Shown: positions 7,994-64,000 of the stretch, one piece after another | How positions within the stretch are numbered: the stretch's first letter is position 1 | Layout: each line of letters starts with the position of its first letter | Origin: Candidatus Poribacteria bacterium | GTDB lineage: Bacteria; Poribacteria; WGA-4E; JAJDTR01 | Length of the DNA stretch: 64,000 bases | NCBI GenBank assembly: GCA_022827055.1 | Contig: JAJDTR010000165.1 | Location: forward strand, 17,682-81,681 | Direction: 5' to 3' | Position numbers and translations under genes: made by a program | The notes under the pieces: model-generated | What the model was told of the DNA's origin: nothing | What the model saw: only the letters and a program-made list of their open reading frames with translations | Database searches by the model: none

Positions 7994-8827
7994 ATGAGTG
8001 ATGAGTTAGTCATTGATGATTTACACGTGAGCGTTGAAGACAAGCCGATTATCAAGGGGCTTAACCTCAGGATTAAGCAGGGCGAAATCCACGCGCTCAT
8101 GGGACCTAACGGGTCGGGCAAAAGTACCCTATCCAACGCATTAATGGGGCATCCGCACTACGATGTTGACAAAGGTACGGTTACTTTCAATGGTGCGCCC
8201 ATCCTCGAGTTGGAACCGAATGAACGAGCGAGGCTTGGACTCTTTCTCGCCTTTCAGTACCCAACGGCGATTCCTGGGGTTACCATGGCGAATTTTCTCC
8301 GGATGGCGGTGAGTTCCGTGCGCTCCGAAAATTCAAACGGAAGCGAAACTACCGAATTGATTCCCATGCGTGAATTTCGCCGCGAACTTCGAGGAAAAAT
8401 GAAACAGTTGGGTGTTGATGAATCGTTCGCTCGACGCTATCTTAACGACGGTTTTTCGGGCGGCGAGAAAAAGAGGGCGGAAATTCTGCAACTCGCGATG
8501 CTTGAGCCCAAGGTAGCAATCCTTGATGAGACGGATTCAGGATTGGATATTGACGCCGTCCGTATTGTTGGTGAAAGTGTGAACCAGTTGATTGGTCCCA
8601 ACTTGGGAGTCTTAATTATCACACACTACCCGCGCCTCCTCAACTATATCCGACCCGAATATGTACATGTTCTGCTTGACGGTAGAATCGTTGAATCCGG
8701 GGGTTGGGAACTTGCCGAACTGTTGGAGGAGAAGGGATACGATCCAATACGCGAAAAATACGGCATTGCAGCGACAGTACCGGACACTGACGGCGAAGCG
8801 GAAGAATCGAGCGCCTTTCGGGGCTAG
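7994..8827 (+). CDS. sufC: Fe-S cluster assembly ATPase SufC
   Basis: Walker A GPNGSGKST, ABC signature FSGGEKKR, and SufC-typical N-terminus. Confidence 0.92.
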   Translation: MSDELVIDDLHVSVEDKPIIKGLNLRIKQGEIHALMGPNGSGKSTLSNALMGHPHYDVDKGTVTFNGAPILELEPNERARLGLFLAFQYPTAIPGVTMANFLRMAVSSVRSENSNGSETTELIPMREFRRELRGKMKQLGVDESFARRYLNDGFSGGEKKRAEILQLAMLEPKVAILDETDSGLDIDAVRIVGESVNQLIGPNLGVLIITHYPRLLNYIRPEYVHVLLDGRIVESGGWELAELLEEKGYDPIREKYGIAATVPDTDGEAEESSAFRG

Positions 8828-25956: not shown

Positions 25957-26015
25957 CGACTGAATTAGGAGATCAAGCAAGTGAATAGCGCGCGCGATAG
26001 TAAATCCTGCGATAG
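25957..26015. repeat. two tandem copies of the dispersed GATCAAGCGA...GCGATAG element
   Basis: gatcaagcgactgaattaggag / atcaagcaagtgaatagcgcgcgcgatagtaaatcctgcgatag. Confidence 0.45.
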
Positions 26016-51540: not shown

Positions 51541-51580
51541 ATGTGTATGTAGGATCAAGCGAATGGATAATGAGCGCGAT
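51541..51580. repeat. solo copy of the dispersed element (GGATCAAGCGAATGGATAATGAGCGCGATAG)
   Basis: Almost identical to the reverse-strand copy at 58083-58125. Confidence 0.5.
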
Positions 51581-51600
51581 AGAGATCCCCATGCCCCGCT

Positions 51601-54724: not shown

Positions 54725-54822
54725 TTCGGTCCTCCTCTTCATCACGTCATTCGTGGCTACTCTGGTAGGCGCGGTTTCCAACCACGCTGAATGGTTAGAC
54801 CTTCAGTCCCCCTCCATCGGGG

Positions 54823-55011
54823 ATCAACCGAGTGAATAACGAGTGCGATAGCTAATCTTCTTAGGCCTCCAGAAGATACACACCTTTCGGGAATAGAGCA
54901 ATGCTTAAATGGGATATGCCGTTGGAGTCGAGTTAAAAGTTACATGCTTGCTACAGCGATGGGAATTCTATCACCTTCGCTATCAGGATCTCTATCGCGC
55001 TCCTTAATCAG
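54823..55011. mobile_element. MITE-like element copy i (189 bp) inside a CRISPR repeat
   Basis: TIRs are aTCAACCGAGTGAATAACGAGTGCGATAG and CTATCGCGCTCCTTAATCAGTCGCTTGATC. Confidence 0.6.
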
Positions 55012-55122
55012 TCGCTTGATCTGTTCGTTCGTTTAATCTCAGTTGATCCTTTTCGTCGGGGTATAGGTTGCTACCCGGTGCAGGAATTTGTATCAACTCG
55101 CCTCAGAATCTTTCAGTCCCCT

Positions 55123-55326
55123 TTTCGTCGGGAATCAACCGAGTGGACAACGAGGGCGATAGCTAATCCTCTTAGGTCTCCAGAAGATACACGCCTTTCG
55201 GGAATAGTGCAACGCTTAAATGGGATACTGCCATTGGAGTCAAGTTACAATTACATGCTTGCTACCGCGATGGGAATCCTATCGCCTTGGGATCTCTATC
55301 GCACTCGCTATGCACTCGCTCGACTC
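55123..55326. mobile_element. MITE-like element copy ii (about 204 bp) inside a CRISPR repeat
   Basis: About 88% identical to copy i. The right TIR is degenerate and is followed by TTTTCATCAG. Confidence 0.55.
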
Positions 55327-55468
55327 TTTTCATCAGACTCAACCCTCGTAGGCGGGGCATCCTGCCCCGCCTGAAGATGCCCTTCCTAATCAGGGCATGA
55401 GGTGTCACAATCCAAATCGCTCTGATCCGCTCCGGGCCAATCCACTTTCAGTCCCCTTTTCATCGGGG

Positions 55469-55573
55469 ATCAACCGAGTGGATAGCGAGGGCGATAGTAG
55501 TTTTCCTCCCTAATCACACACTTTAGGTCTCTCTTTGGAATCGCTATCGCGCTCCCTATCCGGTCGCTTGATC
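55469..55573. mobile_element. MITE-like element copy iii (105 bp short variant) inside a CRISPR repeat
   Basis: TIRs are ATCAACCGAGTGGATAGCGAGGGCGATAG and CTATCGCGCTCCCTATCCGGTCGCTTGATC. It is flanked by TTTTCATCGGGG and TTTTCATCGCGG. Confidence 0.6.
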
Positions 55574-55674
55574 GCTTTTCATCGCGGCATTCACTGCTAC
55601 AAGTGCGCGGCGCGCTTAGGGAGGTGGGAAAAGTGTTCTTTCAGTCCCCTTTTCGTCGGGGCATAGGTTGCTAC

Positions 55675-56079
55675 GACCTATCGATCAATAGCCGAAACTC
55701 CTCTAAACATAGAAACCACTTGCGTTTGTAAGTCATGCTTGTAATTTTGACACATCGGCACTGCCCTGTCAATTTCAAACGGCGCAGGCGCCAAGTATTC
55801 AGTGTTCATCAGTGTTTGACGGCTTAGCGTGTGGATTTTCGAAAATCGTTAGTTTGTCCCCAAACATCGCTCGGGGCACACGCAACCTCGACGTAGACTG
55901 CCGAAAATCGGGTTGAAATTCACGTGAAATGTAGTACCATCCCGCTGCGTAAATCTTTATTATCCACGGTCGGGACCAAGTCCTGTCTGCGTTCCACGCC
56001 TATATTGGGATTTCGCAAATCGACCCCCGTTTTCCGCAGAAAACGGATTTTCGAAACGCTTCGATTTTAATTGGATGCC
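55675..56079 (-). promoter_or_regulatory. CRISPR leader region with repeated palindromic GATTTTCGAAAmyC / CCGTTTTCCGCAGAAAACGG motifs
   Basis: Lies between cas4 and the first repeat. It is AT-richer than its surroundings and contains three related motifs. Confidence 0.45.
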
Positions 56080-56652
56080 TCACAACACATCGGCGCAGAA
56101 TCGCCGAAATTCGCATTCGACGCATTTTCCGCGCTGCGGCGTCGGTGGCGGCATCCATTCATCCGATAGCATCCGTCGGATGTCCCGGAGCGCGCCGCGC
56201 GTTTTCTCGCGGAGCGACTCTGATATTGCAATCGGCGTGATTCGCCCCGTGGGAATCCGATAGATAAACCCCTGAGTCACCGCGACGCCGAGACATTCCT
56301 CCACCATCATGGCGTAGGCTGTTAACTGGCATTTCGCGTTCAGGTCGAGTCGTCCTCTCGTGCTCTTGAACTCCACGGGGAACGCCCCGGTTTCCGTCTC
56401 GATAAGCAGGTCGAGCACGCCGGTCAATCCCAGTGACTCGGCATGGAGCGGAACGTGGAATTTCCGGCTGCCAGCCTCAAGCCCGTAACAGGCAAGCGTC
56501 CGGCGGCGCTCCAAGACGCTTAACACCTCGTGTTCGTCCGCGCCAAGCTCCATCGGGTGCGTCATCGGACGGTGTACCGGAGTGAAGTAGGTGTGGTAGA
56601 CCACCCGCGGACAGTAGAAATACTGTTTAATGTCGCTGACTCGTATATTCAT
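56080..56652 (-). CDS. cas4: CRISPR-associated exonuclease Cas4
   Basis: N-terminal Cys (YFYCPR), RecB-nuclease motifs (VLDLLIETE...EFKS, QLTAYAMM), and a C-terminal CVECEFRRFC cluster. Confidence 0.85.
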   Translation of the reverse strand: MNIRVSDIKQYFYCPRVVYHTYFTPVHRPMTHPMELGADEHEVLSVLERRRTLACYGLEAGSRKFHVPLHAESLGLTGVLDLLIETETGAFPVEFKSTRGRLDLNAKCQLTAYAMMVEECLGVAVTQGFIYRIPTGRITPIAISESLREKTRGALRDIRRMLSDEWMPPPTPQRGKCVECEFRRFCADVL

Positions 56653-56900
56653 CTTTCAGCATCCCCGATAATAGTGCGTTGGTCGAAATCCTTCGCACAC
56701 ACGCCGATCACCTCTATCTTTCCTTCGGCGGCTCCAAATTCTCGTGTCAGTTTCGCGTCCAACGCTCGGCGGCGCGTGGTATTAATGTCCCCCAAGAAAG
56801 CGCTGTATTGAATCCGTTTCAAACCGTAGTCGAGACAGACATCGGCAATCTTTTTGCGTATTCGGTCTTCGACGATGTCATAAATAACGTATGTGTACAT
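56649..56900 (-). CDS. cas2: CRISPR-associated endoribonuclease Cas2
   Basis: 83 aa, MYTYVIYDIVEDRIRKKIADVCLDYGLKRIQYSAF. Confidence 0.85.
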   Translation of the reverse strand: MYTYVIYDIVEDRIRKKIADVCLDYGLKRIQYSAFLGDINTTRRRALDAKLTREFGAAEGKIEVIGVCAKDFDQRTIIGDAER

Positions 56901-56906
56901 ACCACG

Positions 56907-58016
56907 TCACCAACTCGTCACCAACGGCTGATAATCCCTCTCTCCGCGCAGGAACATCGCCAGATGACGCGCCTGAATCTGGATGATATTGCACAGCTTC
57001 TGGTCTTTACGCTCGAACCGCTCCGTCTCCTGAAGCCGTTCCAGAATCCGGTCGGCGAGCGAGCGCCGCGTGCCTTTGCTCAAATACCGCTGCGTACCCG
57101 CGTCCGGATCCGCATCCGGCTTTGCCGACTGGTGCGCGGATTTGGCGGCGTCGTCATCCGGCTCCTCCCATTCGACCTTAAACTTCTTGTTAATCATCGC
57201 AAACACCACCCGGTCAACAATCGGCTGGCGGAACTCCTCGATGAAATCCAACACCAGCGACGGTTTGCCCGGGCGATCGACATGGAGAAATCCCGCGAAC
57301 GGTTCCAGCCCAGCCAGCGCAAGCGCGCTCCACACTTGGGAATAGAGCATCCCGTAGCCGTAATTGAGCAGCGCGTTCACATCGTCCGCCGCCCCCTGAT
57401 GTTCCCGCGTCGTGAATCGCCCGGTGGGCAGCAGCCGTTGCACACACTCCCAGTAGAGCGCTCCCGCGCGTCCCTCAAGGTTGAGCAACGTGGTTCGGAG
57501 GGCATCAATCGGCGACTCCCCGTTCTCCTCAACCCTCGGCGCTTGGAGAATCTGAATATCGCCCATCAGCTCCTCAATCTTGGTAGCCCGCTCCACCAGT
57601 TCGTCGTACCTCTTGGGCGCGCTTTTCTTGCGGTACTTGCCGAAATAGCGCACCAAGTTTATCTGATTCCGCAGCTTCCCCGCCGCGAACCGCTTGGCAA
57701 TCTCCACTCCGCGCTCATCGTGATACGCGGCGAGTTGCTCCCGCCGGGAGATGACCGTCGCCGTCAACGAAGGGCTGTTGAGTTTGGCGTACGGTTTGCC
57801 GTTGAAACTGAGAAACGAGATTTCAATCCCGCGCTCCGTGCACGCCTCAATCAGGTCCGACGACAAGCTAACCCCGCGCGACGCAATAACAATCTGATCC
57901 AGATCCATGAGGGCGTGCTCCTCTTTCCCCCGCTCCTCATCGCGATAGCGCACGCTGACGCGCTCCGAACGTTTGCCGAGGGAGGTGCCGAAGTCGGAGA
58001 TAGTGAGTTGGTTCAT
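56907..58016 (-). CDS. cas1: CRISPR-associated integrase Cas1
   Basis: Cas1 fold signature regions (ISDFGTSLGKRSERVSV..., NALLNYGYGML, and the E/H/D catalytic region). Confidence 0.9.
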   Translation of the reverse strand: MNQLTISDFGTSLGKRSERVSVRYRDEERGKEEHALMDLDQIVIASRGVSLSSDLIEACTERGIEISFLSFNGKPYAKLNSPSLTATVISRREQLAAYHDERGVEIAKRFAAGKLRNQINLVRYFGKYRKKSAPKRYDELVERATKIEELMGDIQILQAPRVEENGESPIDALRTTLLNLEGRAGALYWECVQRLLPTGRFTTREHQGAADDVNALLNYGYGMLYSQVWSALALAGLEPFAGFLHVDRPGKPSLVLDFIEEFRQPIVDRVVFAMINKKFKVEWEEPDDDAAKSAHQSAKPDADPDAGTQRYLSKGTRRSLADRILERLQETERFERKDQKLCNIIQIQARHLAMFLRGERDYQPLVTSW

Positions 58017-58082
58017 GTTTTTTTCCTTATAAAAAACTTCAGTTGTTTAGTTCAGTCTAGAACTTACGCGACAACAGGAGTT

Positions 58083-58125
58083 CGTGTTCGGAGATCCCTC
58101 GCTATCGCACTCATTATCCATTCGC
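58083..58125. repeat. solo copy (reverse orientation) of the dispersed element in the cas1 / brnT divergent promoter region
   Basis: The reverse complement is GATTAAGCGAATGGATAATGAGTGCGATAGCGAGGGATC. Confidence 0.5.
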
Positions 58126-58268
58126 TTAATCGTAAGCCGTGACACGTATCAATAGGAAGTACCAGAATTGGCAACGATTAGAGATTACTGAGTTTAAAGT
58201 GCCAACCTCAGTTATTTACATATTTTTATCTTGACATCTGTATATACACATTGTATACTATATGTGTC

Positions 58269-58544
58269 ATGGATTTTGAATGGGATTCAATGAAGAACCA
58301 ACATAACATCGAAAAGCACGGCATTGATTTTGCGAATGCGGTGCGCATATTTGGGAATCCAACGTTTGAAGTAGTAGACAATCGCCGCAACTATGGCGAA
58401 AAACGAGTTGTCGCAATGGGCACGGTTGACGACATCATACTTTATGTCGTATACACCACCCGAGGCGGCAATCGACGGATTATTTCAGCAAGGAGGGCAA
58501 ATCGCCGTGAAAGAAGAACGTACCGTGAAGGTTTCTCTCAATAA
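58269..58544 (+). CDS. brnT: BrnT-like toxin (DUF497/COG2929 ribonuclease toxin)
   Basis: MDFEWDSMKNQHNIEKHGIDFANAVRIF...RIISARRANRRERRTY is a conserved BrnT pattern. Confidence 0.7.
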   Translation: MDFEWDSMKNQHNIEKHGIDFANAVRIFGNPTFEVVDNRRNYGEKRVVAMGTVDDIILYVVYTTRGGNRRIISARRANRRERRTYREGFSQ

Positions 58545-58884
58545 CCTCCCGAAAAATACACAAACTGACTGGGAAAAAGTCAAAAATATGACCGAGGCCG
58601 AAATTAATGCGGCAGCGGCATCCGACCCCGACGCCCAACCCACCGATGAGGCGTTCTGGAGAGATGCCCACGTCGTGATGCCGCAGCCTAAACGCGCCAT
58701 CTCAATGCGAGTTGATAGCGACGTGCTTGCGTGGTTCAAATCGCAAGGACGCGGTTATCAAACACGCATAAACGCCGTATTGCGAGCGTATATGGAGGCA
58801 CACCGTTACGAAGATAAATCAGCTACGAATGCAACTGTAATCGCTGAAACTTCGAATCAACCCGAATCGGGTAAGGAAGCATAG
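58507..58884 (+). CDS. brnA: BrnA-like antitoxin (CopG/RHH family)
   Basis: AISMRVDSDVLAWFKSQGRGYQTRINAVLRAYMEAH. A GTG at 58507 follows an aggaggg RBS and overlaps the brnT 3' end. Confidence 0.6.
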   Translation: MKEERTVKVSLNNLPKNTQTDWEKVKNMTEAEINAAAASDPDAQPTDEAFWRDAHVVMPQPKRAISMRVDSDVLAWFKSQGRGYQTRINAVLRAYMEAHRYEDKSATNATVIAETSNQPESGKEA

Positions 58885-59022
58885 CAAGAAAGATGCGTCG
58901 CGGCAACCCGCCACGGACGAGGCAAAACGTTTCTCACTGAAGAATTCGGTTATCACTTGGATTAGCCATGTCGCTCACTATCTATCTTGATACAGTGCTG
59001 GACAGCCGAAATGGCAAATACT

Positions 59023-61407
59023 TTAGTCAAATGTCAATCCCGCCTCCGAGTCGTACGCGGCTTTAACGCGATACGGTTCTTTCCGTTCCCGGGGCAAGAT
59101 TCTATCATCATTTCTTAGAGCGTGATATCTCCTCCAGCTTATCGGGACTAACAGTTCTCCAGCGCGAATTGGCTCATCGTCGCATACGGTTTGGTATTCT
59201 TCATACATTGAATCTGGTAGCACCTCAAGCCCATCAAACGCCTTGAAAAACAGGTTCTCAAGTTCCTCATTTGCCGAAAACGGACGCATTGTTCTCACAC
59301 AAGTTTTGTCAAAGTCTGCGGCGGCGATTTCGTATTCCTCTCGCCAGCGCGCTTCAATCTCACCGCTGTAAATCTCATCCAGCCATCCTCCAATCGCGCT
59401 TTCGTCAATCGGTCGTTCATGTTCGCGCTCAAGAATTACAATCGTCTGTTCCACCAGTTCTGGGTCATAAATCTTTTGCCCGTCGTCGGGTTGGCGGAAC
59501 ACGTGAACTGGTGCAAGGTCTCTCTGTTTCCTGCCGCGGTTAATACGACCAAAGCGTTGCACGAGCGCTTCTAAAGGCGCCGGTTCTGTATAAATTGTGT
59601 CGAGGTCAATATCAAGACTAACCTCAACTACTTGCGTCGCAACGAGAACAATCGGATAGCGCGCGTCGCTTGTTGAGCCTGTCGCTTCTCTGATAATTTG
59701 CTCTTTCTTGGAACGGTCTCGCATGTTAAACCGACCGTGCAAGAGTTCGGTTCGGATATTTACCTCATTCAATTCGTTACGAATCCGTTCATATGCTTCT
59801 TGTGCGCGATCGACCAAGTTGCACACGACCAACACCGATTTCCCTGCCTTCGCATCTCCTGTCACCTTCGCTAGAATTGAATCATCTAATAACTCGCCAT
59901 CGTGTAGCATGAGCCGGTGACGCACGAATTTTTGAAATAACTCGGGAGCAGCTTCAACTGTAGTTGGTGTGTCTAAGGCTTCGGATAGCCACCCTTGAAT
60001 CAGTTTTGGAAAGGTCGCCGACATAACGAAGAAACGCGCGTTGAAATTTACCCTCAAGTATTCGATGGTCTTGAAAATCATAGCCAGTCGACCGACTTCG
60101 TAGGCGTGGATTTCGTCGAAAATGAACGCCGCGTTGTGGTAATCGGTAAGCAACGCCTCGTAACCCTTGAGGCGGTACATCCCTTTAAGCATCTGATACG
60201 GGCTAAACACACGGACGGGTGGATAATTCAGTCGTGAGAGATTCCGCGCCCGTCTCGCAGTGCGTGCCGCCGCTTGTGAGGAATAGTCCCTTTCCAAGAG
60301 ATCTCGGTAAAGAGCAAGTAGACTGCGCCCGTGCTGTAAACCTACACGCTTTGGAAAACTATCATTTAATCGCTTTTGCATAGCATTCATACTTGCTTGG
60401 TAGGGGAGCGTATAAAAAAGTCTGGGCAAACATCCTGTGACTGAAGATTGACGCGCCGCCCAGAGCAGCGCAGCTTCGGTTTTTCCGCTACCGGTAGGCG
60501 CTACCAAAAGTGCTGAATCATTAATTGTTGCGGCTTTTGACTGGTGTTCAAAGAGACCTTCCGGGGACAGGTCGCGGCTAGCTAAAATCGTGTCCGCGTG
60601 AAACTGAGCAAGTGGTATCGGTCCCGCGTGAGCCGAAGCGCTGTGGTCTGCATTGATAATGTAACCACGTACCGTAATTCCCGGCACAACTGCATGAGGT
60701 GCCTCGCCGTCCTCGAAACCTCGATTGAGTCTGCGGTAAACCCTCAGCCAATGCCGAATCCTTTCAACCCCACGCTGCTGAATGGACTCAATTGCAGTCT
60801 GCTCCGCCGGGAGTGTTGGTTCAAAGATGCCGCAATCAATGAGCCCAAGGTCATCTCGCCATGGGATAGCACATTCTGACAACCAACGCCACAATCCGTG
60901 CAAGCCCCCCTCTTTAAGAGACGCGAGTTGTGGTTGCAACGGATCATCGTCGTCGAAGTCAGGGATGGGGTAAATCCGCTGAATTTCCTCGAAATCCCGA
61001 TGATGCGAGACAATACTGGCAACAAGCCACTGCTGTTCTTCTGTCGAAAGATCACCTGCAATCCAATCGACAAACGCGAGCGAAAACACCTCGTGGCGGT
61101 GTCCCCAGACGGTTCCGTCAGAATGGAGCTGGGTTTGAAAGCTGTCCAATGCTTTTCCAAAATCGTGAAGAAACGCCGACCAATAAAGGACGTGCCATAA
61201 ACGCGGCACATTTAGCTGCTGCGGCAAGTTTGGGCGCAACCGGATAAACTCTGCTAACCGTGACAACACGTTCCATGTATGCCGGGCTAACGTCTCCGGT
61301 TGACCGTCTTCACCCAATTCCGCACTTTTTGCCCATACACCGTCTAACCAATCTGGACTTATTGAAGGCTTGCTCGCGACGGATTTAGTCAGCGGTTGCA
61401 TCTTCAT
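59023..61407 (-). CDS. cas3: Cas3 helicase-nuclease with N-terminal HD domain
   Basis: HD motifs (HTWNV, LHDFGKA, HRHEV) followed by DEAD/DEAH helicase motifs (APTGSGKTEAALLWAA, FDEIHAY). Confidence 0.9.
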   Translation of the reverse strand: MKMQPLTKSVASKPSISPDWLDGVWAKSAELGEDGQPETLARHTWNVLSRLAEFIRLRPNLPQQLNVPRLWHVLYWSAFLHDFGKALDSFQTQLHSDGTVWGHRHEVFSLAFVDWIAGDLSTEEQQWLVASIVSHHRDFEEIQRIYPIPDFDDDDPLQPQLASLKEGGLHGLWRWLSECAIPWRDDLGLIDCGIFEPTLPAEQTAIESIQQRGVERIRHWLRVYRRLNRGFEDGEAPHAVVPGITVRGYIINADHSASAHAGPIPLAQFHADTILASRDLSPEGLFEHQSKAATINDSALLVAPTGSGKTEAALLWAARQSSVTGCLPRLFYTLPYQASMNAMQKRLNDSFPKRVGLQHGRSLLALYRDLLERDYSSQAAARTARRARNLSRLNYPPVRVFSPYQMLKGMYRLKGYEALLTDYHNAAFIFDEIHAYEVGRLAMIFKTIEYLRVNFNARFFVMSATFPKLIQGWLSEALDTPTTVEAAPELFQKFVRHRLMLHDGELLDDSILAKVTGDAKAGKSVLVVCNLVDRAQEAYERIRNELNEVNIRTELLHGRFNMRDRSKKEQIIREATGSTSDARYPIVLVATQVVEVSLDIDLDTIYTEPAPLEALVQRFGRINRGRKQRDLAPVHVFRQPDDGQKIYDPELVEQTIVILEREHERPIDESAIGGWLDEIYSGEIEARWREEYEIAAADFDKTCVRTMRPFSANEELENLFFKAFDGLEVLPDSMYEEYQTVCDDEPIRAGELLVPISWRRYHALRNDDRILPRERKEPYRVKAAYDSEAGLTFD

Positions 61408-62110
61408 TTCCTACAAAGTTGTGGAAAATCAATCCGAGATGGCTGCCTCGGTACTCAGGCACCAACGGGTCAATCCAATGTGTGGAGTTCCCATTTGAAG
61501 GTGTCACTCGATCAGTGAGAACCGTATATTGCGAAAACTGTGGTTGACGGTTTCGATTGTAGTCTAGATAGCGCGGCAGCAAAACCGATACTCCCCGCCC
61601 CAATCTTTGCCCCATTTGGTGCGGAATAATTGTGTGCTCAAAGTAGACATTCTCGCTCTGCTGCAATTCAACCACGTTGATTTCTGTGTAAGTGAACAAG
61701 TCTTGCGACGTGCCCAAGGACACGGCATACCGAGGACTTCGGAAAGCCGTTTCCCAGTCGGGACGGTTGATGTAGAGCGTGAGACGCGGCTGAAATAGCA
61801 ATTCGCGTTCAAAGGGGTTTACATTGCCCTCAAGGGCATTAGGGATTTGAGTACCGGGAAACTTGCTACGATTAGATTTAGGTGGTGCTAACACAATGAT
61901 GTGTTCAATATCCCTAACGTGCCCCTGATGCGTGAAATGGTAAGCGAATTGAACCCCGCTTGAATCGAACCATTCCCCTAGTGCGCTACAGATGTGCCCG
62001 TAGATTGTCGCGGGCGGTGGCATCTGAAAACTGGGATGAATCTGTAGCATGAAATGTGGATAGCGAAAAGACGTAGTAAGCCCTTCCGCAACGATTCTAA
62101 GGACTTTCAT
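61385..62110 (-). CDS. cas5: Cas5 (type I-B-like)
   Basis: Internal start MKVLRIVAEGLTTSFRYPHF...PPPATIYGHICSALG, a typical Cas5 N-terminus, preceded by a gggag RBS. Confidence 0.7.
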   Translation of the reverse strand: MKVLRIVAEGLTTSFRYPHFMLQIHPSFQMPPPATIYGHICSALGEWFDSSGVQFAYHFTHQGHVRDIEHIIVLAPPKSNRSKFPGTQIPNALEGNVNPFERELLFQPRLTLYINRPDWETAFRSPRYAVSLGTSQDLFTYTEINVVELQQSENVYFEHTIIPHQMGQRLGRGVSVLLPRYLDYNRNRQPQFSQYTVLTDRVTPSNGNSTHWIDPLVPEYRGSHLGLIFHNFVGNEDATAD

Positions 62111-62177
62111 AGAAAACTCCCGAGTTAAGAATGAGAAACCGAGTTTTTTCGAAAAAAGCTCGGTTTCTTCTTTGCTC

Positions 62178-63266
62178 TCAATCCAACCAATTCGCATTTT
62201 CGGCTTTCTGTAAATCTTCCACAAACCCTTTGAATGCATCGCGTGGATGGCTCACGGTGAGTTTCGCCCCGCAAGCTGCAAAATCGGTTTCTTCATTCAA
62301 TGCCTTCAAAAGTTTAAGCCGTTCATCATCAAGATATCCCTTGACCCAACCAACGTAAATGTCTGAGAGAATGTCGTCCTTGAAAACTGCCAGAGCCTCC
62401 GCAAGCGCATCAACCTTCAATTCAGGCTCGCCGTGCTGATTGGCGCCGACGATGTGGCCGAAAATGTGATTGCCCCCTTTGGTCACTGCCCATATAACCA
62501 ACGCGGGACTTACATCTGTGTAGTGTAAAGACTGTTTCGCGCCGCCTTCAAGGTGTGCGAGACCATCCAACAGCGTGCTGATACGTTGAATCCGAGAGTC
62601 AAACGGTAGTCGATAGGCACTTTCGTCCTCCAAGTGTTCAAGGTTTTGGTCTTTCGCCAATTCAATGCGAACATCGTCAAGATTGCGAAAACCGGTTTTT
62701 TGCCGATAGGAAAATGTCCCTGCTGCATGCAAATCAAGCGAAAGCAGCCCTTTTAGGGTTGTACGATAGAATTGATGTTCGTGCGGAACCGGATCACCGT
62801 CATGCCTTGACATCGTACCGAAATCGTCAACAACGCGTGTCGGCGCAATAGAGACTAAGGTACTCACGCGAAAAGGTGAAACGCGAGTTACTGCGTCTGC
62901 GGTTTCAGTCTCGTTCGCTCGCGATTCGTCTGCTTCTCGTTTCTCCTTAGCGGAAGCCCTCTTTGATGGGGCTCGCATGTAGCCGAAAAGATCGTCGTCC
63001 CAATATTCAATAGGGTTGGCATCGGTATAAGCCACCTTTTCCTCCCGGTAGATTGGAGCAGGTGTCCAATTGAATTCACTCCCGTCTAAGGTTGTACGCA
63101 GCCAGTAGCGAAACGATTGCGCTGACACATAAGGATAAGCGCCCTGCCGTGTGCGAATCATCTTTACGCCTACAGTGTTATCGTTACGCGCACCGGGAAT
63201 GCTTCCGAGATTGTTGAGCGCGGATGCTGGAGCGTCAATGAGCATCAAACCAGTTGCAAAAGCCAT
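62178..63266 (-). CDS. cas7: Cas7 backbone subunit (DevR/Csh2-like)
   Basis: LIDAPASALNN and YVSAQSFRYWLR motifs resemble the Cas7 RRM core. An aaggagg RBS is present. Confidence 0.65.
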   Translation of the reverse strand: MAFATGLMLIDAPASALNNLGSIPGARNDNTVGVKMIRTRQGAYPYVSAQSFRYWLRTTLDGSEFNWTPAPIYREEKVAYTDANPIEYWDDDLFGYMRAPSKRASAKEKREADESRANETETADAVTRVSPFRVSTLVSIAPTRVVDDFGTMSRHDGDPVPHEHQFYRTTLKGLLSLDLHAAGTFSYRQKTGFRNLDDVRIELAKDQNLEHLEDESAYRLPFDSRIQRISTLLDGLAHLEGGAKQSLHYTDVSPALVIWAVTKGGNHIFGHIVGANQHGEPELKVDALAEALAVFKDDILSDIYVGWVKGYLDDERLKLLKALNEETDFAACGAKLTVSHPRDAFKGFVEDLQKAENANWLD

Positions 63267-63299: not shown

Positions 63300-64000
63300 T
63301 TAACTGTTTTCAGTCTTGTTCTCTTGGGCGGTCTCCTCAACCACATCGGGATTTTCGCCCAACCAGCCTTTTTCATGCAGCCGTTCGACCATTCTGATGA
63401 AGACAAGGTCACGCGCTAACCACCAGTCTAGCTTCGCCAATTCATAGCCCTCTTCAAAAACCTCAATGTACGGGTCAAATGTGATAATCGGGGCATTGCC
63501 ACGGTTGACATATTCTAGATTGGTGCGAATCAAGAGCGTGCGTACATTGTTCGGGTTTCTCTCACGAAAAAAATTAAGAAAGAAACGTTTGTCATTCTGG
63601 CTACTGACATAGTCCGCAAGTCTGTCGCCCATCTTGCGAATTTCCTCAATTCGTTCTTTTTCCATGTTATATACCCTCCTTAAAAAAGATGCGGTGATGC
63701 CCCACGAAACCAAATCGATACCACCCGTTAATCCGTATTCTGCCCGTGGATCGCCCTGTTCGGTGCGAGCGTAACGGAGTGCTCGACGCAAAAAGTAAGT
63801 TTGCAGGAACGTTTTTGCCTTGTCGGGTAGAAGAAACGTCCCATCATACAGTCCTAGAATATCCTCATAAAGCCAATTCCGACGCGGGTGAAACGGCTTG
63901 TTATCCTTCTGTCCCCTCTTTTTCTGCGGCTCCACTTCCCACGCCCGATGGACGATTCTGCCCCACTGGAATCGGTAATCAGGCTCCCCCATTTCACGTA
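63300..64000 (-). CDS. probable Cas8-family large subunit, C-terminal (small-subunit-like) part; reading frame remains open to the window edge
   Basis: Alpha-helical region directly upstream of cas7-cas5-cas3, matching the cas8b-cas7-cas5-cas3 order. No diagnostic motif, so this is a contextual call. Confidence 0.4.
   Translation of the reverse strand, partial: REMGEPDYRFQWGRIVHRAWEVEPQKKRGQKDNKPFHPRRNWLYEDILGLYDGTFLLPDKAKTFLQTYFLRRALRYARTEQGDPRAEYGLTGGIDLVSWGITASFLRRVYNMEKERIEEIRKMGDRLADYVSSQNDKRFFLNFFRERNPNNVRTLLIRTNLEYVNRGNAPIITFDPYIEVFEEGYELAKLDWWLARDLVFIRMVERLHEKGWLGENPDVVEETAQENKTENS

Follow-up and report, generated by a model that had tools for sequence, protein, structure and literature searches.

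The stretch of DNA analysed here, called the window, comprises 64,000 nucleotides (nt) of contig JAJDTR010000165.1 (positions 17,682 to 81,681), and its host is almost certainly a sponge symbiont of the Candidatus Poribacteria. The window contains a locus of short palindromic repeats, clustered and regularly interspaced, and associated genes (CRISPR-Cas), and inside this locus a toxin-antitoxin pair, brnT and brnA (together brnTA), lies between the stop of cas3 (59023) and the start of cas1 (58016). The pair is on the plus strand, and all cas genes of the window are on the other one. A preliminary description of this DNA had proposed overlapping BrnT and BrnA reading frames at exactly this place and in this orientation; profile searches and the corrected gene starts bear it out on each point.

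The brnTA cassette and its CRISPR-Cas locus

Both gene starts differ from the mechanical reading-frame limits used in the preliminary description (58251-58884 for the pair). For brnT we place the start at ATG 58269 rather than TTG 58251, because the listed homologues have, with few exceptions, about 90-91 residues, the copies read here open with M(D/E)FEWD, and the predicted -10 box falls within the TTG extension. For brnA, GTG 58507 replaces ATG 58393, since an AGGAGG ribosome-binding site lies 10 nt upstream and the gene calls in relatives agree. With brnA starting there, the two genes overlap by 38 nt. The toxin gene precedes the overlapping antitoxin gene, a layout typical of BrnTA that recurs in the intact copies of relatives.

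BrnT matches the Pfam family PF04365 (BrnT_toxin) over the entire profile (positions 1-77 of 77), with E=3e-27 and 95.2 bits against a cutoff of 34.5. BrnA matches PF14384 (BrnA_antitoxin; E=1.9e-18, 67 bits, cutoff 26.1), its residues 34-96 aligning with profile positions 23-68 of 68; the match takes in the C-terminal DNA-binding part of the profile. No PADLOC family matched either protein at E<=0.01, no NCBIfam model matched either, and a sequence search of the PDB with BrnA returned no match and no solved relative.

An AlphaFold model of BrnT, computed with 32 homologues as input, reached a predicted local distance difference test (pLDDT) score of 92.7. The model has two helices, at residues 7-17 and 21-29, as well as four strands and a further helix at the C terminus; the protein is thereby predicted to have the BrnT fold, in which an antiparallel sheet of four strands is packed against two short helices. 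Foldseek superposed the model over its full length on chain A of 7VD7 (template-modelling score, TM, 0.83; E=4e-8). This Salmonella Typhimurium toxin is also the closest solved BrnT relative by sequence (38% identity, E=4e-13), the comparison being between toxin chains only. The BrnT of Brucella abortus (PDB 3U97) was found at greater distance by sequence search (E=9e-5) and was absent among the best 50 Foldseek matches listed. According to PMC5086665, which summarises Heaton et al. (2012), ribonuclease activity of Brucella BrnT needs Asp6, Glu7, Lys9, Arg41 and Glu78. Four of these five residues appear to be present here: Asp6, Lys9, Arg41 and Glu78 align to D6, K9, R46 and E81, which are invariant across the 32 homologues.

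Among well-diverged pairs, the ratio of non-synonymous to synonymous substitution rates (dN/dS) is 0.08-0.26 for brnT and 0.05-0.17 for brnA, compared with 0.04-0.15 for cas1; a wider brnA range, 0.05-0.29, was also obtained. By this measure both genes are under purifying selection. The BrnA of the window carries a 25-residue C-terminal extension. Ancestral BrnA has 100 residues, and the TAG codon that ends it in L001, L005, L007 and L008 (loci outside the window are given as L numbers) reads TAC in the window, L002 and L006. These three share the extended form, and the homology of the window with L001 and L005 stops at the ancestral stop codon.

Upstream of brnT lies a promoter-like site that agrees with the consensus at 11 of 12 positions. 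The brnT ATG follows 10 nt past the -10 box with no ribosome-binding site between them, which makes a leaderless or near-leaderless mRNA probable. Two palindromes overlap this site. The first, TGTATATACA, is perfect, lies between the -35 and -10 boxes and occurs once only within the window; the second, ACACATTGTATAC/GTATACTATATGT, spans the -10 box. Their position makes them a likely binding site for BrnA or a BrnA-BrnT repressor. The -35 box, the palindromes and the -10 box are conserved in 10 of the 10 brnT copies examined, including the copy beside a type I-D effector (L005) and that of L004, and the flanking intergenic DNA diverges around this conserved core.

The cas1 side of the same gap presents a different picture. 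The divergent gap is 252 nt long (58017-58268), and a promoter scan of it gave no promoter-like site on the cas1 strand. The only blocks conserved in an alignment of 22 cas1 upstream regions were the brnT promoter core and the ribosome-binding site; across these loci the gap varies from ~160 to 355 nt in length, and in sequence as well. The preliminary description had this region serve as a divergent promoter shared by the pair and the cas1 operon. That proposal stands for its brnT half alone, because the cas1 strand lacks a promoter-like site and the rest of the gap is not conserved. Downstream, brnA and cas3 end convergently, and the spacer between their stops contains no terminator-like structure, with fold z-scores of ~0 on both strands; the lone terminator-like match in a terminator scan was dismissed as being within chance expectation. 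A copy of a 30-nt dispersed repeat (GATCAAGCGA..G.ATA.GAGCGCGATAG), of which the window has 7 copies against 0 expected, is present in the cas1-brnT gap, and a related copy breaks a second brnA copy in L002 and in L003.

The surrounding locus is of type I-B, with cas5 and cas7 above their family cutoffs and cas1, cas2, cas3 and cas4 present. The reading frame at 63300-63992 matched no NCBIfam family and is presumed to be cas8 by position only; cas6 was not seen in the window, which ends within the presumed cas8. The adaptation genes run in the order cas1-cas2-cas4, all on the minus strand, the usual order in type I-B being cas4-cas1-cas2. A feature that the preliminary description had missed is that the CRISPR array is almost dead. 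A single intact repeat is left beside the leader, the array region scores 28 bits against Rfam CRISPR-DR10, which is under the gathering score, and a small element whose inverted-repeat ends measure ~30 nt splits the older repeats (at 54822-55021 and 55468-55573, for instance). Despite this near-empty array, cas1, cas2, cas3, cas4, cas5 and cas7 are all full-length open reading frames.

The repeat family of the array is also found in relatives, with 6, 19 and 5 matches (at <=8 substitutions) in L002, L005 and L024, and in L002 the split-repeat unit is tandemly amplified. L001, which is 96.6% identical to the window, lacks one unit of ~68 nt beside the leader, composed of a spacer and the only intact repeat, which suggests recent gain or loss of a single unit.

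Table 1. Coordinates of the features described, in the window unless another locus is named
Feature	Position	Strand	Description
brnTA cassette	~58231-58884	+	promoter to brnA stop; ~58231-58809 ancestrally
brnT promoter-like site	58231-58259	+	TTGACA (58231-58236), 17-nt spacer, TATACT (58254-58259)
Operator-like palindromes	58236-58265	n/a	TGTATATACA at 58239-58248; second palindrome at 58246-58265
brnT	58269-58544	+	ATG start, 91 residues; predicted DUF497/BrnT ribonuclease-type toxin
brnA ribosome-binding site	58491-58496	+	AGGAGG, within brnT 3' end; conserved in alignment A1
brnA	58507-58884	+	GTG start, 125 residues; C-terminal part matches the BrnA_antitoxin profile
BrnA C-terminal extension	58807-58884	+	from alignment A1 and translations
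brnA-cas3 spacer	58885-59022	n/a	138 nt
cas1-proximal intergenic part	58017-58230	n/a	poorly conserved between loci; one dispersed-repeat copy
cas3	59023-61407	-	HD nuclease plus helicase, 794 residues; last gene of interference block
cas5	61385-62239	-	NCBIfam Cas5t, 103 bits (cutoff 96.7)
cas7	62178-63266	-	NCBIfam Cst2/DevR type I-B Cas7, 170 bits (cutoff 72.75)
Presumed cas8 fragment	63300-63992	-	cut by window end
cas1	56907-58016	-	adaptation block
cas2	56649-56900	-	adaptation block
cas4	56080-56652	-	adaptation block
Leader plus CRISPR array	54730-56079	-	array nearly extinct
Leader	~55675-56079	-	beside CRISPR array
CRISPR repeat	55638-55674	-	sole intact 37-nt repeat
Unit lacking in L001	55601-55668		spacer and only intact repeat
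30-nt dispersed repeat, other copies	25971-26000, 51553-51582, 54822-54851, 54992-55021, 55468-55497, 55544-55573
30-nt dispersed repeat, copy in cas1-brnT gap	58102-58131	-
Related 30-nt repeat copy	L002 10844-10881		breaks second brnA copy
Amplified split-repeat unit	L002 4243-4946		tandem
IS200-type gene	L002 7773-8381		Y1 transposase
Type III module, PIN-domain gene and cas6 fragments	L002 1-3854, 17153-17811
DUF5615/PIN-like gene	L024 7919-8287, L006 4258-4626, L012 5170-5538, L004 11060-11428		in effector-cas1 gap
Glyoxalase-family gene	L013 5043-5477, L018 5112-5513		in effector-cas1 gap
Sister-clade brnT	8001-8276 or 6001-6276 of L025-L028, L110, L111		transaldolase-linked

The cassette in related loci

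To follow the slot upstream of cas1, we compared 18 Cas1-related loci from species-level genomes, all of them Candidatus Poribacteria, with Cas1 identities of 78-94%. At this slot brnTA occurs intact, without its toxin or as brnA fragments in 9 of the 18, and also in five metagenome contigs, so the position between effector and cas1 does recur in related CRISPR loci, a check that the preliminary description had proposed. Both genes are intact in L006, L007 and L008. A full-length brnA persists in three further loci, L009 and L013, from which brnT is gone, and L022, in which brnT has an internal deletion; L012, L015 and L017 retain only brnA fragments. The brnT promoter region is still recognisable beside brnA in L013, and the BrnA of L009 has changes within the conserved GYQTRMN stretch. 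Decay of the cassette, as read from these copies, takes the toxin first, as would be expected if BrnT is truly toxic. The other nine loci have no trace of brnTA; eight of them have full-length matches to cas1, cas2 and cas4, and the ninth, L023, has a cas1 fragment only.

Counting the window and the metagenome contigs, an intact pair adjoins cas1 in the window, L001, L002, L005, L006, L007, L008 and L024. The neighbouring effector at the slot may be of type I-B, I-D or Csc2-like, of DevR type, or missing, and brnTA remnants likewise adjoin I-B, I-D and DevR-type effectors. L002 has the arrangement of the window, with an IS200-type gene added between cas1 and cas2. In L005 the pair stands between a type I-D effector (Csc1, Csc2, Cas3') and cas1-cas2-cas4, and in L024 between cas1 and a module in the order cas3, cas8, DevR-type cas7, cas5. 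L001 has brnTA and cas1-cas2-cas4 beside genes for a DnaE2-type polymerase, with the effector absent. L109 consists of an array remnant and leader, then brnTA, then the I-B genes cas3-cas5-cas7. The same adaptation block and repeat family thus adjoin I-B, I-D and DevR-type effectors, which indicates shuffling of modules. Past its array, L002, which is the nearest of the long relatives, also has a type III (Cas10/RAMP) module, together with a PIN-domain gene and a small upstream partner between cas6 fragments.

Several pairwise comparisons locate breakpoints with respect to the cassette. The identity of 96.6% between the window and L001 extends from the array through cas4, cas2, cas1, brnT and brnA and stops inside the brnA 3' end. 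In L109 the deletion of cas4-cas2-cas1, in whose place ~350 nt of repeat-like DNA are found, stops 45 nt short of the brnT -35 box, and leader, brnTA and cas3 are kept. Between the window and L002, identity is a mosaic, with 82% in leader, cas4 and cas2, 95% in cas1 and brnTA, and 88% in the effector. A second, broken brnA copy lies between brnA and cas3 in L002, L006 and L109.

In L006, cas3 is reduced to a fragment while brnTA beside it is intact. The cas1 of L001 is called as two open reading frames and is therefore probably disrupted, with the proviso that the contigs are metagenomic and that a stop codon or frameshift such as this one may be an assembly error. Because cas1 is disrupted in L001, cas3 has decayed in L006, and eight loci keep cas1, cas2 and cas4 without a trace of brnTA, the sequences compared give brnTA no visible long-term protective effect on its cas neighbours.

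The slot can hold other genes. In four loci the effector-cas1 gap contains a DUF5615/PIN-like gene that probably represents a second toxin-antitoxin system, and in two it contains a glyoxalase-family gene (Table 1); the junction therefore acts as a small sink for accessory cargo. The preliminary description had regarded membership of an unrelated insertion carrying other cargo as evidence against its proposal. Such cargo does occur in some relatives, and the gap in the window holds brnTA only.

Beyond the cas loci the distribution changes. A locus that had been taken as a cas-free copy, L004, was dropped from that role, as the first ~46 nt of cas1 occur there twice, reversed, 8 nt past the brnA stop. 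All contexts examined in the clade of at least 79% identity are either linked to cas genes or bear such a cas1 scar. A sister clade, at 75-76% identity, lies between transaldolase (TAL_FSA) and DUF6807 genes in six Poribacteria-like contigs. It separates on a small BrnTA tree with 100% bootstrap; the inner nodes of this tree have unreliable bootstraps, and we use only this split. Among 80 more distant BrnT loci (41-59% identity, from assorted metagenomes, 33 with at least 5 kb of sequence), none has a relative of Cas1, Cas2, Cas3 or Cas4 or a CRISPR-like array, as judged by tblastn with the Cas proteins of the window, which very divergent Cas1 types could escape. BrnA is found near BrnT within the fetched locus in 64 of the 80.

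When the same genome pairs are compared, brnT has a synonymous divergence (dS) several-fold below that of the genes beside it; the dS of brnA is lower too, though less so. Between the window and L007, at the cas-linked site, dS is 0.02 for brnT, 0.24 for cas1 and 0.41 for cas3; between L025 and L026, at the transaldolase-linked site, it is 0.19 for brnT and 0.49-0.50 for the neighbours. With only ~54 synonymous sites in brnT, single values are noisy. Constraint at the nucleotide level and more recent exchange of the cassette are both possible causes. We do not take the low brnT dS to prove that cas loci have recently exchanged the cassette, because the transaldolase-linked paralogue shows the same effect relative to housekeeping neighbours.

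Explanations for persistence at the junction

We favour the reading, at a probability of roughly 0.6, that brnTA is an autonomous and functional type II toxin-antitoxin cassette that preserves itself at the junction of the interference and adaptation modules. A live, self-regulated cassette is suggested by its compactness (roughly 650 bp), by its own promoter and palindromes, conserved at both kinds of site, by the loss of the toxin first, and by its survival when a flank is deleted or exchanged. On the simplest account, the cassette itself is what persists as a unit.

On the model of the homologous Brucella BrnTA, a sigma-70-type promoter would drive a near-leaderless brnT-brnA transcript, with brnA translated from the GTG within the brnT 3' end. 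BrnA would neutralise the BrnT ribonuclease, and the complex of the two, acting at the palindromes around the -10 box, may repress its own promoter. Upon loss or shut-off of the cassette, the labile antitoxin would decay and BrnT would arrest translation. Deletions and module swaps that remove the cassette would then be selected against, and we propose that for this reason the rearrangements that survive end at its borders. Any stabilisation of adjacent cas genes would be incidental and short-range. Homology and comparative layout are the grounds on which we infer that BrnT is toxic, that BrnA neutralises it, that the pair represses itself and that the cassette acts as a barrier to deletion.

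Several observations weigh against this reading. The idea of a deletion barrier is based on a handful of natural rearrangements, and breakpoints at gene ends could also stem from recombination between repeated brnA copies. The position of Brucella Glu7 is occupied by Ser7 in BrnT, and by Ala in 7VD7. The absence of an identified cas1 promoter leaves room for read-through or shared regulation. Lastly, linkage is specific to a lineage, in that it is consistent within the clade of at least 79% identity and found in 0 of 80 distant loci, and this gives scope for a real tie to CRISPR. Given such strict linkage to one cas1 lineage, we keep functional ties in play, whether as guard, abortive-infection partner or regulator of adaptation; together they hold a minor but appreciable share of the probability.

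The best placed of the alternatives, which we nevertheless judge improbable, is that the pair is a dedicated safeguard or abortive-infection partner of CRISPR-Cas, kept for the benefit of the locus. Loss of cas genes could be lethal, in a protein counterpart of CreTA, or a phage that halts host transcription or inactivates Cas could set BrnT free and so send the infected cell into dormancy. The linkage to this cas1 lineage is long-lived and lineage-specific across three effector types, is missing from all 80 distant loci, and has left a cas1 5' scar even in L004, which lies outside a cas locus. Precedents exist in toxin-antitoxin pairs within type I cas loci (PMC3936711) and in CreTA/CrePA (PMC12737573), and the full-length cas genes beside a near-empty array would fit a guarded locus. 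However, the toxin is without visible dependence on Cas proteins, since its antitoxin, a protein, has a promoter of its own and elements resembling a CRISPR repeat or a CRISPR RNA (crRNA) are missing nearby. The eight loci with full-length cas1, cas2 and cas4 and no trace of brnTA, the intact pairs that adjoin a disrupted cas1 in L001 and a decayed cas3 in L006, the lack of a PADLOC model match for either protein, and the stable maintenance of the sister clade at a housekeeping site all speak against a safeguard.

Next in standing, and likewise a tentative suggestion with little probability behind it, is that in Poribacteria BrnTA has become a standing component of the junction. It could guard the locus at the protein level, or be a regulatory and recombination hinge for the cas1-cas2-cas4 block as this moves among I-B, I-D and DevR-type interference modules, and would so retain cas genes despite the near-empty array.

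We regard it as distinctly unlikely that brnTA regulates the adaptation operon, with BrnA or BrnA-BrnT in the divergent gap controlling cas1-cas2-cas4 such that stress degrading BrnA induces acquisition along with the toxin. The divergent layout with only 252 nt between the genes would suit such control, the cas1 operon could be co-transcribed with cas3 only through antisense read-through of brnTA, and in L013 and L009 a full-length brnA without brnT lies directly upstream of cas1, in L013 with its native promoter region recognisable. Yet the palindromes lie at the brnT end, ~215-250 nt from the cas1 start codon, TGTATATACA has no second occurrence in the window, the promoter scan of the cas1 strand came up empty, and the gap varies in length and sequence except for the brnT promoter core. 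An antitoxin that outlasts its toxin is the expected path of decay for any toxin-antitoxin pair, and the BrnA of L009 is altered in the very GYQTRMN stretch that is otherwise conserved.

More doubtful still is a role as a recombination anchor or hotspot, in which repeated brnA or brnTA sequences supply homology for module swaps and the functions of the proteins are secondary. The broken second brnA copies beside cas3 in L002, L006 and L109, the identity mosaic with L002 whose junctions lie at the cassette, the union of one adaptation block and repeat type with three effector types, and the low synonymous divergence of brnT relative to flanking genes are all consistent with it. But the transaldolase-linked paralogue, at whose site modules are not swapped, has a low dS as well, the purifying selection acting on the two proteins shows that coding function is maintained, and the junctions sampled are few. 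An inert relic, that is, a decaying and inactive pseudogene pair, is very improbable: many relatives have decayed copies at the slot and the BrnA of the window has lost its ancestral stop codon, but both reading frames are intact with dN/dS well below 1, the predicted catalytic residues D6, K9, R46 and E81 and the promoter are conserved, the BrnT model is confident, and the extended BrnA is common to three loci.

Relation to known systems and meaning

The pair resembles that of Brucella abortus (3U97) in its two Pfam families and in having the toxin gene first, and its palindromic promoter region would fit the autorepression by the BrnTA complex that PMC5086665 reports for the Brucella system. 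It differs in that the similarity is distant, BrnA has its C-terminal extension, and the pair lies inside a CRISPR-Cas locus.

Zhang, Doak and Ye (2013, PMC3936711) described type II toxin-antitoxin pairs within cas loci of type I, and pairs of this kind are reportedly frequent near the CRISPR systems of archaea (PMC3973734). The families in PMC3936711 include Fic/Doc, PIN with Phd/YefM, MazE and others, but not BrnTA. Those pairs are, like brnTA, protein pairs among type I cas genes, and their role, which is unproven, has been read as a coupling of immunity to dormancy. They are mostly antitoxin-first and on the cas strand, whereas the pair in the window is toxin-first and on the opposite strand, and BrnTA, unlike them, recurs at a single fixed junction beside effectors of several types.

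CreTA is an RNA toxin-antitoxin module that makes type I-B CRISPR-Cas addictive (PMC12737573). It shares with brnTA a place within a type I-B cas cluster, and its proposed outcome is a locus stabilised against loss. In CreTA a crRNA-like RNA antitoxin represses an RNA toxin in a Cascade-dependent manner, whereas both BrnTA partners are proteins with their own promoter. A CreTA-like RNA module as such was ruled out here: no repeat-like sequence occurs in 58000-59022, there is no RNA family match, and the antitoxin is a protein. If BrnTA does prove to be a standing component of the junction, it would stand as an equivalent, in bacteria and at the level of proteins, of CreTA-type addiction, with a link to the shuffling of modules.

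In a literature search of incomplete coverage, we found no paper that ties BrnTA to cas1 or describes this arrangement in Poribacteria. Since toxin-antitoxin pairs in cas loci are already known, what is added here is modest and lies in the comparative pattern at a module junction. Such pairs have been read as agents of addiction, as a link between immunity and dormancy, or as hitchhikers, and evidence that discriminates among these readings is scarce. The locus and its relatives provide a small natural experiment for separating them. Here the cassette is kept when either flank is lost, its decay takes the toxin first, and its cas neighbours decay anyway, a combination that favours self-preservation over service to CRISPR. 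Addiction exerted by BrnTA, if there is any, would shield the cassette and not the function of Cas.

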